Origin: Alphaproteobacteria bacterium
GTDB lineage: Bacteria > Pseudomonadota > Alphaproteobacteria > M2410
Direction: 5' to 3'
DNA length: 64,000 nucleotides
Assembly (NCBI GenBank): GCA_006226415.1
Contig: SBGZ01000061.1
Location: forward strand, 7,341 to 71,340
Shown: positions 9,596 to 11,836 of the stretch, piece after piece
How the letters are laid out: every line of letters starts with the position of its first letter
How positions within the stretch are numbered: position 1 is the stretch's first letter
The notes under the pieces: generated by a model
Told to the model about the DNA's origin: nothing
Databases searched by the model: none
The model's input: the letters and a program-made list of their open reading frames with translations, nothing else
Translations under genes and position numbers: made by a program

Positions 9596-11836
9596 TCAGT
9601 CTTCTCTTAAACTTGCCATCAGCTCTTCCGGGACCGGCAGGAGACCGGCGTCTTCGGCGGCTTTGCGTTCTGCAGCGAGGTGGGCATCTGACTGCTCCAG
9701 CAGCGCTTTGTACCTTGGATCGTCCTGAAGTTCTTCAAAAATGACATCCGCGATCAATTGGGAAAATATCCAGTGGGAGCGTGCCCACTGATCTTCCAAT
9801 GCTTCCAGGGCGGCTTCTTTGTTTCCTTCCGCCATTGCAATGCATGCGCTTAGATAGTCCGTCGTAAAATAGATACCGTCCGGGTCGGCAAGAAGTGTCT
9901 GGTGGATGTATTTCAGTTTATCCAGGATGAGAGCAGCACGCGCCCGCTTCCCAAGCTTTCGGCTTAGATAGAGAGACAGGGTCGCGCCATTGCAGCTTGC
10001 CCCAATGTCATAGTTTGGTCCCCAGCCGTCAGGGTCGGGGTCGTCAAAGTACATGAGCAGGTCGAGGGCTTCCTGGTACTCCCCTTCGCGGGCCTTCCAG
10101 TCGGCCAGAGTGAGCGCGATTTCATGGTTTTTCGCAGCCCCCTCCCGGGCTTCGATTTGCTGGCAAAGACGCCGTGCTGCACTCTCATCTCCAGCTAGCG
10201 TGTATAATGACAACGCCATAACTGGATCAAATTCTTCGAAGACGGCGATATATCCAAGCATGCCAGCAAGGGCCTGGGTGTAATAGAGCGCAACGGCATT
10301 TGCGGTCAGCGCTTCCAAATTCAGCTGCAGGGTCATCGCCTGCGCATAGTGTCCCTTATGCATGGCGATGAGTGATCGACAATAATCAATAAACAGGGAT
10401 CCAGGATGGGATGCCTCCAGCTGGCGGAGAGTGGCGTTGGCGTCGTCCCAATTCTGACGGTACAGGTGTTCATTAAAGACACTCGTAAGGGCGAGCAAGG
10501 AGACCGGGTCTCGCTCGAGTGCCTTGCGCGCACTCGAAAAGACCGGTGCCGAAGGATCCCCGCCCATTTTATGGGCCTGAGTTAAAAGATTGTAACCACG
10601 CGAGTAATTCGGATTGAGGTTGATCGCCATTTCAGCTGAGGTCTGGGCTTTTGCCAGATCGCCGTTCAGCATGTAATACAAGCTCCAAATTCCATGTACC
10701 TCAGCGGCAGTGGGGTCGAGACCTTGTGCCTTTTCCAGAAGAGGCCAGGCGGCGGCCAAAGCTTCTTTCAAAGGGGTCCGGCCATAACAGGAGCCATCGT
10801 CGGAGAGAAGCAGCATGGCATCGGCCAATCCGATAATTGCAGGCGCATAGTCCGGGTCGGATATTAGAGCGGCCTCAAAGTGCTGTTTGCCCGATTCTAT
10901 ATCTTCCCGCGTGCGTTTCCTCAGAAACTGTTGACCCAGCATATAATGCTCATAGGCGCCGACGCTGGCACTGCGGGCCGATTGCGGTGCCTGCATGGTG
11001 CCGCCACCTAGGATGTGATCTTTCAGTTCGGCGACAATGGCGGCGGAGATCTCGTCTTGCACGGCGAAGATGTCATCAAGGGTGCGGTCGTAGGTATCGG
11101 ACCAAAGGTGCGAAGAGTTGCCGGTTTCAATCAGCTGGGCGGTGATGCGTACCCGGTTGCCGGCTTTGCGGACCGAGCCCTCCAGAACATAGGCGACCTG
11201 CAGAAGCTCACCGATCTCAGCGACAGACTTGTCGGTGCCTTTGAAAGCAAAGGACGAGGTGCGGGCAATGACGGTCATCTCCTTGATTTTGGAGAGCAGA
11301 TTGAGCAGTTCCTCGGAAATGCCGTCGGAGAAAAACTCCTGCTCCGGATCCGATGACATATTGACGAAAGGCAGGACGGCGATGGAAGCGTCTGACTTGG
11401 TCTTGCCCGACTTCGGCAATGAGATCGCTTCATTGGGGGTGAGCCGACCGGAGGTCAGATGATGGTCGAGCGCTTGCAGGAGGTCATTGATGCAAGGGGC
11501 CTTGCCGCCGGACCAGCCGGAGAAGTCGATGGTCTGAAGCTGCCGAAAGCCCATGGGCGAACGAATGCCGTCCAGCGAGATCGGTAGCAGGTTACCGGTT
11601 TCCAGCGCCAGGTCCGCTTCGTCGGCAACCCAACGGGATTTGATCGCGTTCGGCGACCAGGCCACCAGCACGACACGGGCGTGGCGCACCTCGGTCTCGA
11701 TTTCTGAGGAAAATCTTGTGCCGCCTTTGAGCTGCCGGTCCCACCAGACGGAATAGCCGGCGCCCTCGAGCTCGGCCACAAGGGGCTCAATGCGCGCGCG
11801 ATCCTCGCTGGCGTAACTGACAAAAATATCGGCCAA
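9596..11836 (-). CDS. TIR-domain protein with a cyclase-type sensor-linker block and C-terminal TPR array (paralog 1)
   Basis: The N-terminus [13 protein letters not shown]...SRWVADE is TIR-like. The middle block [17 protein letters not shown]...[17 protein letters not shown] follows, then TPR-like helical repeats at the C-terminus. The start codon is TTG. Confidence 0.85.
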   Translation of the reverse strand: MADIFVSYASEDRARIEPLVAELEGAGYSVWWDRQLKGGTRFSSEIETEVRHARVVLVAWSPNAIKSRWVADEADLALETGNLLPISLDGIRSPMGFRQLQTIDFSGWSGGKAPCINDLLQALDHHLTSGRLTPNEAISLPKSGKTKSDASIAVLPFVNMSSDPEQEFFSDGISEELLNLLSKIKEMTVIARTSSFAFKGTDKSVAEIGELLQVAYVLEGSVRKAGNRVRITAQLIETGNSSHLWSDTYDRTLDDIFAVQDEISAAIVAELKDHILGGGTMQAPQSARSASVGAYEHYMLGQQFLRKRTREDIESGKQHFEAALISDPDYAPAIIGLADAMLLLSDDGSCYGRTPLKEALAAAWPLLEKAQGLDPTAAEVHGIWSLYYMLNGDLAKAQTSAEMAINLNPNYSRGYNLLTQAHKMGGDPSAPVFSSARKALERDPVSLLALTSVFNEHLYRQNWDDANATLRQLEASHPGSLFIDYCRSLIAMHKGHYAQAMTLQLNLEALTANAVALYYTQALAGMLGYIAVFEEFDPVMALSLYTLAGDESAARRLCQQIEAREGAAKNHEIALTLADWKAREGEYQEALDLLMYFDDPDPDGWGPNYDIGASCNGATLSLYLSRKLGKRARAALILDKLKYIHQTLLADPDGIYFTTDYLSACIAMAEGNKEAALEALEDQWARSHWIFSQLIADVIFEELQDDPRYKALLEQSDAHLAAERKAAEDAGLLPVPEELMASLRED

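Follow-up and report, generated by a model that had tools for sequence, protein, structure and literature searches.

Gene and domain architecture

The window analysed in this work, a 64,000-nucleotide stretch of contig SBGZ01000061.1 (positions 7,341 to 71,340) from an alphaproteobacterial metagenome-assembled genome (MAG), contains a complete gene on the minus strand at 9596..11836. According to the open reading frame (ORF) call, Pfam and the NCBI record, it starts with TTG and encodes a 746-aa protein with an N-terminal TIR domain, a TolB-N-like middle domain and a C-terminal region of tetratricopeptide repeats (TPRs). An ORF of this length and position had been reported in the original prediction, which was made from the sequence alone, and the motifs quoted there are all found in the translation: a 13-residue TIR start at residue 2, SRWVADE at residues 67-73, a block from residue 150, a further piece at 216, HLWS at 243, TYDR at 248 and DIFAVQDEI at 255. 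NCBI lists the product as TNE58155.1, 'MAG: TIR domain-containing protein [Alphaproteobacteria bacterium]'. This entry comprises 757 aa, i.e. 11 codons beyond the TTG-start ORF (window 11837-11869, minus strand). As most homologs begin with (M/L)ADIF in the family alignment, the start giving 746 aa is favoured.

From the N- to the C-terminus, the protein consists of a TIR_2 domain (residues 1-128, 11453..11836), a disordered linker of 20 aa (residues 129-148, 11393..11452), a highly conserved alpha/beta domain (residues 149-275, 11012..11392) and a TPR solenoid (residues 290-746, 9599..10969), all encoded on the minus strand. The full-length AlphaFold2 (AF2) model has a predicted local distance difference test score (pLDDT) of 85.9 and a predicted TM-score (pTM) of 0.75, with disorder confined to residues 130-148, where the pLDDT drops below 50. 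The linker contains no hydrophobic segment and occupies the place of the transmembrane helix in the relatives P0065, P0091 and P0107. The TPR region, presumed to be the helical-repeat part of the sensor, is all-helical in the model with a pLDDT mostly above 90, and Foldseek matches it to TPR superhelices and to the periplasmic domain of CadC (CadC_pd). In Pfam, TPR_19 scores above the cut-off and TPR_2 is also matched, while the C-terminal residues 661-714 weakly resemble TPR_END_plus (NF047558, 28.6 bits, under the cut-off of 32).

The motif scan found no Walker A motif in the 746-aa protein, and no NTPase family was matched in Pfam. The Kyte-Doolittle hydropathy calculated over a 19-residue window peaks at only 1.44, so a transmembrane segment is not predicted. 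The protein thus has neither of the two elements that the original prediction had described as missing, a transmembrane segment and a Walker A/STAND module, and it is predicted from its sequence to be a soluble, cytoplasmic variant of a chassis that usually spans the membrane.

The TIR head and its putative catalytic glutamate

In agreement with the predicted N-terminal TIR domain, the hidden Markov model search identified Pfam TIR_2 (PF13676) at residues 4-108 with E=1.6e-24 and 87.2 bits against a cut-off of 28. In the AF2 model the secondary-structure elements follow the order beta-alpha-alpha-beta-alpha-alpha-beta-alpha. A phmmer search against the PDB aligned residues 3-75 to AbTir (7uwg, 8g83) and placed W69 and E73 on the W and E of 'DWTNYE', which we take to be W204 and the catalytic glutamate E208. 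The two residues belong to the SxWxxxE motif S67-R-W69-V-A-D-E73 (11618..11638, minus strand), and E73 lies within a predicted helix, residues 68-80. The assignment of E73 as the putative catalytic glutamate, already made in the original prediction from the spacing of the motif, is therefore retained.

A profile built from 20 TIR heads of the family and searched against PDB structures matched 7uxr (E=9e-11), AbTir, 3h16 ('TIR protein'), 4c7m, 4lzp and 4lqc (TcpB), and also Cat1, TIR-STING, RUN1/RPV1 and SARM1. Across 132 TIR heads of the family, taken from the soluble as well as the transmembrane clades, F5, S7, Y8, W31, D33, G39, W60, S67, W69 and E73 are 100% conserved. The loop formed by residues 37-39, which includes G39 and has low confidence in the AF2 model, is taken to be the BB-loop. 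Judged by these sequence features, catalytic competence of the head is well supported, and the head is a putative NADase or producer of cyclic ADP-ribose (cADPR).

The PDB entries 9m0n and 9umd, an 824-aa 'Tetratricopeptide repeat protein', have a TIR-like N-terminus that the family TIR profile matches with E=9.5e-4. They were considered as a solved structure of this family and rejected, as the middle-domain profile finds no middle domain in them; a paper describing them was not found in the literature. Among the PDB matches to the TIR and middle-domain profiles there is no solved structure of the family.

The middle domain and the CadC-like sensor fold

The original prediction had treated the LPFxNxSxDPEQ block as a linker between head and repeats. 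Structure prediction does not agree with this: in the AF2 model of residues 140-285 (pLDDT 86.8, pTM 0.82) the block is a folded alpha/beta domain. Foldseek relates it to the lipoprotein GNA1162, PelC, the TolB N-terminal domain, FlgT, LpoB and the N-terminal subdomain of the CadC periplasmic domain, with E-values spanning 4e-8 to 3e-4 and entries including 4hrv, 5t0z, 4r40, 4q6l and 3ly7. At the sequence level, Pfam gives a weak FlgO match at residues 148-241, and FlgO alone (E=0.006) was matched by a middle-domain profile in the search for a solved structure.

The resemblance to CadC extends beyond the middle domain. When the full-length model was compared with the whole of CadC_pd (3ly7/3ly8/3ly9), Foldseek returned TM-scores, normalised to the target, of 0.64-0.67 over 327-354 aligned columns, covering the middle domain and the first TPRs. 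NCBIfam models give weak, sub-threshold matches to CadC, HilA and the TIGR04510 cyclase within residues 147-509, the last of these with 26.7 bits against a cut-off of 400 and at residues 179-506 only. Hence, as modelled, the chassis amounts to a sensor like the periplasmic domain of CadC to which a long TPR array has been added.

Within the protein, constraint is strongest in the middle domain, as seen against the ortholog of the sister genome described below and against cyclase- and kinase-headed proteins, to which the domain is still 42-51% identical. Its many invariant polar residues fall in DPEQ, DG, EGS, R, QL, HW and QD. Being nearly invariant across all heads and having no assigned function, it is a target in its own right.

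Paralogs, orthologs and evolutionary rates

A homology search, together with the NCBI records, revealed two further copies of the gene on the minus strand of the window. Paralog 2 (TNE58166.1, 744 aa, 23274..25508) has the same full architecture and is 41% identical overall, and paralog 3 (TNE58163.1, 637 aa, 20164..22077) has the same TIR and middle domains followed by a shorter, divergent TPR region. Tblastn additionally located a relic of a fourth chassis copy at 16563..16694 on the same strand, 44 codons bounded by stop codons (FVNMSSSPKQEFLSDGISQEHLNLL) with 59% identity to residues 157-200. The relic is intergenic, with a KefB-like antiporter gene on one side and a nitroreductase gene on the other. 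The three paralogs and the relic lie within 16 kb of the window; none of these copies, nor the transmembrane helix of the relatives, had been part of the original prediction. When the three paralogs are compared with one another, the middle domain is 72-73% identical, the TIR domain 54-66% and the TPR region 18-39%.

The sister MAG M3011 contains positional orthologs of all three paralogs, which are 71, 73 and 76% identical and sit between the same housekeeping genes, themselves 86-98% identical. Nonsynonymous divergence (dN) from the M3011 ortholog, determined by the Nei-Gojobori method, was 0.014 for the middle domain, 0.086 for the TIR domain and 0.35-0.36 for the TPR region, compared with 0.01-0.08 for flanking genes; as synonymous divergence (dS) is saturated (proportion of synonymous differences, pS, 0.78), only dN was compared, and dN/dS is unusable for judging positive selection on the TPR region. 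The dN of the TIR domain indicates purifying selection on it. The overall pattern is that expected of a constant signalling core joined to a rapidly diverging sensor surface, as far as sequence divergence can tell.

A large family with exchangeable heads

The module formed by the middle domain and the TPRs was expected from the original prediction to be shared with class III cyclase and winged-helix heads, and this is what we observed, with Ser/Thr kinase heads in addition. In a search for homologs it was found behind PF00211 class III cyclases (~1030 aa) and Ser/Thr kinases as well as in headless proteins, and many chassis copies were seen on rhizobial replicons, annotated as adenylate/guanylate cyclase or as winged helix-turn-helix (wHTH)-TPR proteins. 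Full-length TIR-headed homologs share 33-71% identity. According to hydropathy, nearly all cyclase- and kinase-headed relatives listed have one strong transmembrane helix 20-30 residues before the LPF motif, a helix shared by a TIR-headed subclade (P0065, P0091, P0101, P0107). The sensor half (residues ~150-746) is most closely related, with 43-53% identity, to headless proteins with an N-terminal hairpin of two transmembrane helices bearing the motif 'ELKRRxVFKV'. As these nearest relatives are not cyclases, the direct exchange of a cyclase for a TIR head, which the original prediction had put forward, is not established, while its observation that the TIR occupies the cyclase position on the same chassis holds.

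An exhaustive search with residues 1-285, in which representatives were clustered at 50% identity, yielded 110,376 representatives with E<=1e-3, of which 12,060 had E<=1e-30. Of the top 150 representatives 89 are TIR-headed, corresponding to at least 89 clusters at 50% identity; 51 of them have a transmembrane helix between the TIR and the middle domain and 38 have none. In a neighbour-joining tree the soluble and the transmembrane forms are scattered over several blocks, which indicates that the helix was gained or lost several times and rules out a clade without it that arose from one loss event. Proteins with a TIR head were found in Sphingomonadales, Caulobacteraceae, Rhodanobacteraceae and further Gamma- and Betaproteobacteria, cultured strains included, so that the chassis is not restricted to Alphaproteobacteria as had been supposed. 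Among the cultured carriers, Sphingomicrobium nitratireducens O-35 (with two tandem copies) and Sphingomonas caseinilyticus NSE70-1 have the soluble form, Novosphingobium aquiterrae and Novosphingobium sp. RL4 the transmembrane form. The TIR-(TM)-TolB-like-TPR architecture, in which TM denotes the optional transmembrane helix, is common in several proteobacterial classes and not rare. The 746-aa protein carries the three features by which we define the family in this analysis, namely a TIR with SxWxxxE, the LPFxNxSxDPEQ middle domain and TPRs; rather than being unique to this genome, it belongs to a family that is large and uncharacterised.

Elsewhere, chassis genes often form tandem arrays, in which 12 kb may contain as many as 8 copies, and one Rhodanobacteraceae MAG has four TIR-headed copies. 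In other phyla and classes (loci L047, L055, L052 and L012) the arrays comprise up to 8 headless chassis genes, whose products have a conserved N-terminal 'MSFFxELKRRNVFRV', 2-3 transmembrane helices and then the middle domain and TPRs. Six TIR-headed proteins (P0003, P0023, P0031, P0035, P0058 and P0059) bear the JGI label 'adenylate cyclase'; TIR_2 is on record for them and PF00211 is not. The label was probably transferred via the shared middle and TPR module. In practical terms, several database entries of the family are called adenylate cyclases without a recorded cyclase domain.

Comparison with known systems

The chassis resembles that of CadC/ToxR-like regulators, including the soluble HilA type, in having an N-terminal output head followed by a TolB-N-like alpha/beta subdomain and a helical-repeat bundle. 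Forms with and without a transmembrane helix are both observed on the chassis studied here, and CadC and HilA show the same split. The 746-aa protein differs from CadC and ToxR in its TIR instead of a wHTH head, the lack of a transmembrane helix and a much longer TPR region, and in sequence it scores far under the cut-offs of the CadC and HilA families. Class III cyclase-(TM)-TolB-like-TPR receptors (rhizobial and deltaproteobacterial, TIGR04510-like) share with it the N-terminal position of the head and the homologous middle domain (42-51%) followed by a TPR array, whereas PF00211 is absent from the 746-aa protein and most cyclase versions carry a transmembrane helix before the block.

The nearest functional analogue is SARM1, an ARM-SAM-TIR NADase: helical repeats act as its sensor and gate the TIR, whose NADase activity depends on oligomerisation. 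Like SARM1, the 746-aa protein combines its parts in one polypeptide and has neither an NTPase nor a partner gene, and the family TIR profile matches the SARM1 TIR. The domain order is reversed, however, with a TolB-N-like domain instead of SAM and TPRs instead of ARM repeats, so the comparison goes no further than an analogy.

Bacterial defence TIR proteins (ThsB, TIR-SAVED/TIR-STING, SPARTA TIR-APAZ, TIR-STAND/Avs) have a related TIR with a conserved catalytic Glu. Unlike these, the 746-aa protein has no ThsA, CD-NTase, SAVED, STING, APAZ, prokaryotic Argonaute (pAgo) or STAND NTPase, either within it or as a conserved neighbour. With regard to Thoeris, no ThsA (SIR2 or Macro/TM with SLOG) is adjacent and the ThsB models match weakly (E>=3.7e-5). 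For TIR-SAVED/TIR-STING CBASS, the SAVED_TIR model is matched in the TIR part only (residues 2-79) and there is no neighbouring CD-NTase; for SPARTA, the top PADLOC match covers only profile positions 5-134 of 430 and no pAgo gene is nearby. The central STAND NTPase with Walker A that characterises Avs and TIR-STAND proteins was not present in the motif scan or Pfam. Since the defining partners or domains are absent, the protein does not belong to Thoeris, CBASS, SPARTA or Avs, consistent with the original prediction, which had set it apart from Thoeris, CBASS-TIR and Avs by the lack of an NTPase and of a conserved partner gene.

In the two-gene anti-phage system BcTir/BcTpr (10.1101/2023.05.26.542521), an NAD+-consuming N-terminal head is likewise under the control of C-terminal TPRs. 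As described there, the BcTpr head differs in being a MilB-like glycosidase, a separate TIR gene is required and there is no TolB-like domain. We found no description in the literature searched of a TIR + TolB-like/CadC-like + TPR architecture, which is in line with its proposed absence from any named, characterised system, and it is not mentioned in the accessible part of Kaur et al. 2020 (PMC7159879). The protein is a fusion of a sensor and a TIR effector whose chassis is undescribed, and the family, deposited as 'TIR domain-containing protein', is uncharacterised.

Genomic context

The gene at 9596..11836 is flanked by an alpha/beta hydrolase gene and a DEAD helicase gene. The hydrolase ORF (8585..9589) lies on the same strand and begins 6 nt past the stop codon of the TIR gene, or ~100 nt past it if an internal ATG is the start. 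The scan detected neither a sigma-70-like promoter nor a convincing terminator between the TIR gene and the hydrolase gene. As an operon partner the hydrolase was rejected: it is absent beside the 71% identical ortholog, and when the flanking ORFs of 20 TIR-headed loci were clustered, no neighbour family besides the chassis itself was conserved. The claim that there is no partner gene thus applies to conserved partners, while a same-strand gene does follow directly in this genome.

A total of 114 flanking proteins from 17 other genomes, analysed with PADLOC and Pfam, are housekeeping proteins such as GlyRS, DAHP synthase, Pth, CTP synthase and ribosomal S7. Only isolated matches were found among them and no defence enrichment, and a defence-island context was rejected. 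Carriage by phages or plasmids was rejected as well, as the phage sequences searched contained no match and the combination of TIR and middle domain gave one match only in the plasmid collection, on a 1.8-Mb Novosphingobium replicon.

Proposed mechanism and alternative explanations

With moderate confidence, and by analogy with the proteins compared above, we propose that the 746-aa protein would act as a sensor-gated, oligomerisation-activated NADase in a single polypeptide. The TIR head, of the NAD+ glycohydrolase or ADP-ribosyl cyclase type, would be tethered by the flexible 20-aa linker to a two-part sensor, in which the highly conserved TolB-N-like domain would pack against the fast-evolving TPR solenoid. 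A ligand or partner may bind through the variable TPR surface and alter the self-association of the sensor, i.e. of the middle domain and the TPRs. The clustered TIR heads would then combine into composite TIR-TIR active sites and begin to cleave NAD+, with either NAD+ depletion and growth arrest or an ADP-ribose (ADPR)- or cADPR-type signal, read by a receptor encoded elsewhere, as the output. Class III cyclases, Ser/Thr kinases, wHTH heads of the ToxR/CadC type and TIR NADases are each known to be switched on by dimerisation or oligomerisation. As all heads are activated by proximity, their common logic on this chassis may be that the sensor drives them together. With respect to the biological role, we lean slightly towards stress or signal sensing as part of the core genome rather than a classical mobile anti-phage system.

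Several points weigh against this interpretation. Autoinhibition and assembly are drawn from analogy, and the near-saturated dS makes the rate comparisons rough. The structural relatives of the middle domain are all periplasmic, whereas the 746-aa protein is predicted to be cytoplasmic, and the window did not reveal a receptor for a TIR product. The bacterial TIR proteins characterised so far act mostly in immunity, and the multiplicity of paralogs and the fast-evolving sensor would also fit an immune receptor.

Single-gene abortive infection is a possible, if doubtful, alternative. Here each paralog would use its TPR surface to detect a phage protein or some other sign of infection; the TIR domains would assemble, NAD+ would be depleted and growth of the infected cell would stop. 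The PADLOC matches are all to defence TIR modules (SPARTA TIR-APAZ with E=2.8e-15, PDC-S66, SAVED-TIR and ThsB), but they are confined to the TIR domain, and the chassis mostly carries classical signal-transduction heads. Likewise, a TPR region diverging ~5-fold faster than the flanking genes, three paralogs and a relic in 16 kb and the tandem arrays elsewhere would suit a role in defence, yet the three paralogs are kept as positional orthologs between the same housekeeping genes. A PD-T4-2_A/NsnA-like and HEPN gene pair 5 kb away, and the caspase-FGE-sulfatase and phage-lysozyme genes inserted beside the ortholog in the sister genome, also point towards defence; against them stand the housekeeping character of the 114 flanking proteins, the lack of phage copies among the sequences searched and a sole plasmid-collection match on a replicon of 1.8 Mb.

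It is unlikely, though conceivable, that the protein is specifically a second-messenger synthase, whose sensor-triggered TIR would turn NAD+ into a cADPR-isomer or ADPR-type signal for a receptor encoded elsewhere, much as its cyclase-headed relatives produce cAMP. The TIR sits in the exact head position of the class III cyclases on the homologous chassis, there are several paralogs per genome and numerous chassis copies on rhizobial replicons, and the context is that of the core genome; rhizobia have many receptor cyclases. No SLOG, Macro or SLATT gene lies beside 9596..11836, however, no neighbour is conserved in the 20 TIR-headed loci, and the product chemistry is not predictable from sequence. 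A DUF4231/SLATT-like membrane protein does adjoin two relatives of the transmembrane type (L082 and L053), but the DUF4231 match is weak (E=0.0047, below the cut-off), limited to 2 of ~21 loci and without a homolog in the window.

That the TIR is a non-catalytic assembly or adaptor module, which only scaffolds higher-order sensor complexes, is very improbable, since the putative catalytic Glu is invariant, as are the preceding Trp and Ser and G39 of the presumed BB-loop, in the 132 heads of the soluble and transmembrane clades, even though some TIR domains, such as those of animal TLR adaptors, work without catalysis and BcTir is reported to have a Lys in place of the Glu (10.1101/2023.05.26.542521).

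Beyond the single protein, there is a wider proposal, tentative and rather unlikely in its full extent: TIR-(TM)-TolB-like-TPR proteins may be widespread one-component receptors whose routine signal output is NAD+ cleavage, in the same way as their cyclase-headed homologs synthesise cAMP. The members with a transmembrane helix would then be built in the style of Toll-like receptors, with an extracytoplasmic repeat sensor, one transmembrane helix and a cytoplasmic TIR, while the soluble members would sense cytoplasmic cues, and TIR signalling would be part of core bacterial physiology and not of immunity alone. Research on bacterial TIR domains has to date dealt almost exclusively with effectors of immunity and with virulence factors. 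Here, a TIR that appears catalytically intact is found on a chassis whose other heads are those of cyclases, kinases and ToxR/CadC-type regulators, encoded in core-genome contexts, with several stable paralogs per genome and in several proteobacterial classes. An active TIR, if confirmed, would make the family a tractable model, with neither NTPase nor partner, for the gating of TIR assembly by a helical-repeat sensor, an arrangement somewhat like that of SARM1, and the family could serve to test NAD+-derived signalling outside bacterial immunity.

Neighbouring genes and other loci

About 5 kb from the TIR gene, two overlapping genes at 3115-4633 (plus strand) form a likely defence pair. The first encodes a GmrSD_N/DUF262 protein (PADLOC NsnA, E=4e-62; PD-T4-2_A, E=2e-48) and the second a RiboL-PSP-HEPN protein. 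The pair is missing at the syntenic position of the sister MAG. In M3011 (locus L081, 5068-7637), a gene encoding Peptidase_C14 (caspase-like)-FGE-sulfatase and a Phage_lysozyme gene are located directly upstream of the 71% identical ortholog. The window has, in their stead, genes for a 552-aa TPR-like protein and an alpha/beta hydrolase on the other side of the TIR gene. Given the insertions in the sister genome, the neighbourhood tolerates insertions and its flanks are variable.

In the cultured strain Novosphingobium sp. RL4 (L082), a TIR-TM-middle-TPR gene (3849-5837, minus strand) is divergent from a gene at 5962-7935 (plus strand) encoding the 662-aa membrane protein with the DUF4231/SLATT match mentioned above. 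A homolog of this protein with 27% identity is encoded near a TIR-headed gene in a Betaproteobacteria MAG (L053, 6513-8423, minus strand). The DUF4231/SLATT-like protein may be an effector for a subclade with a transmembrane helix.

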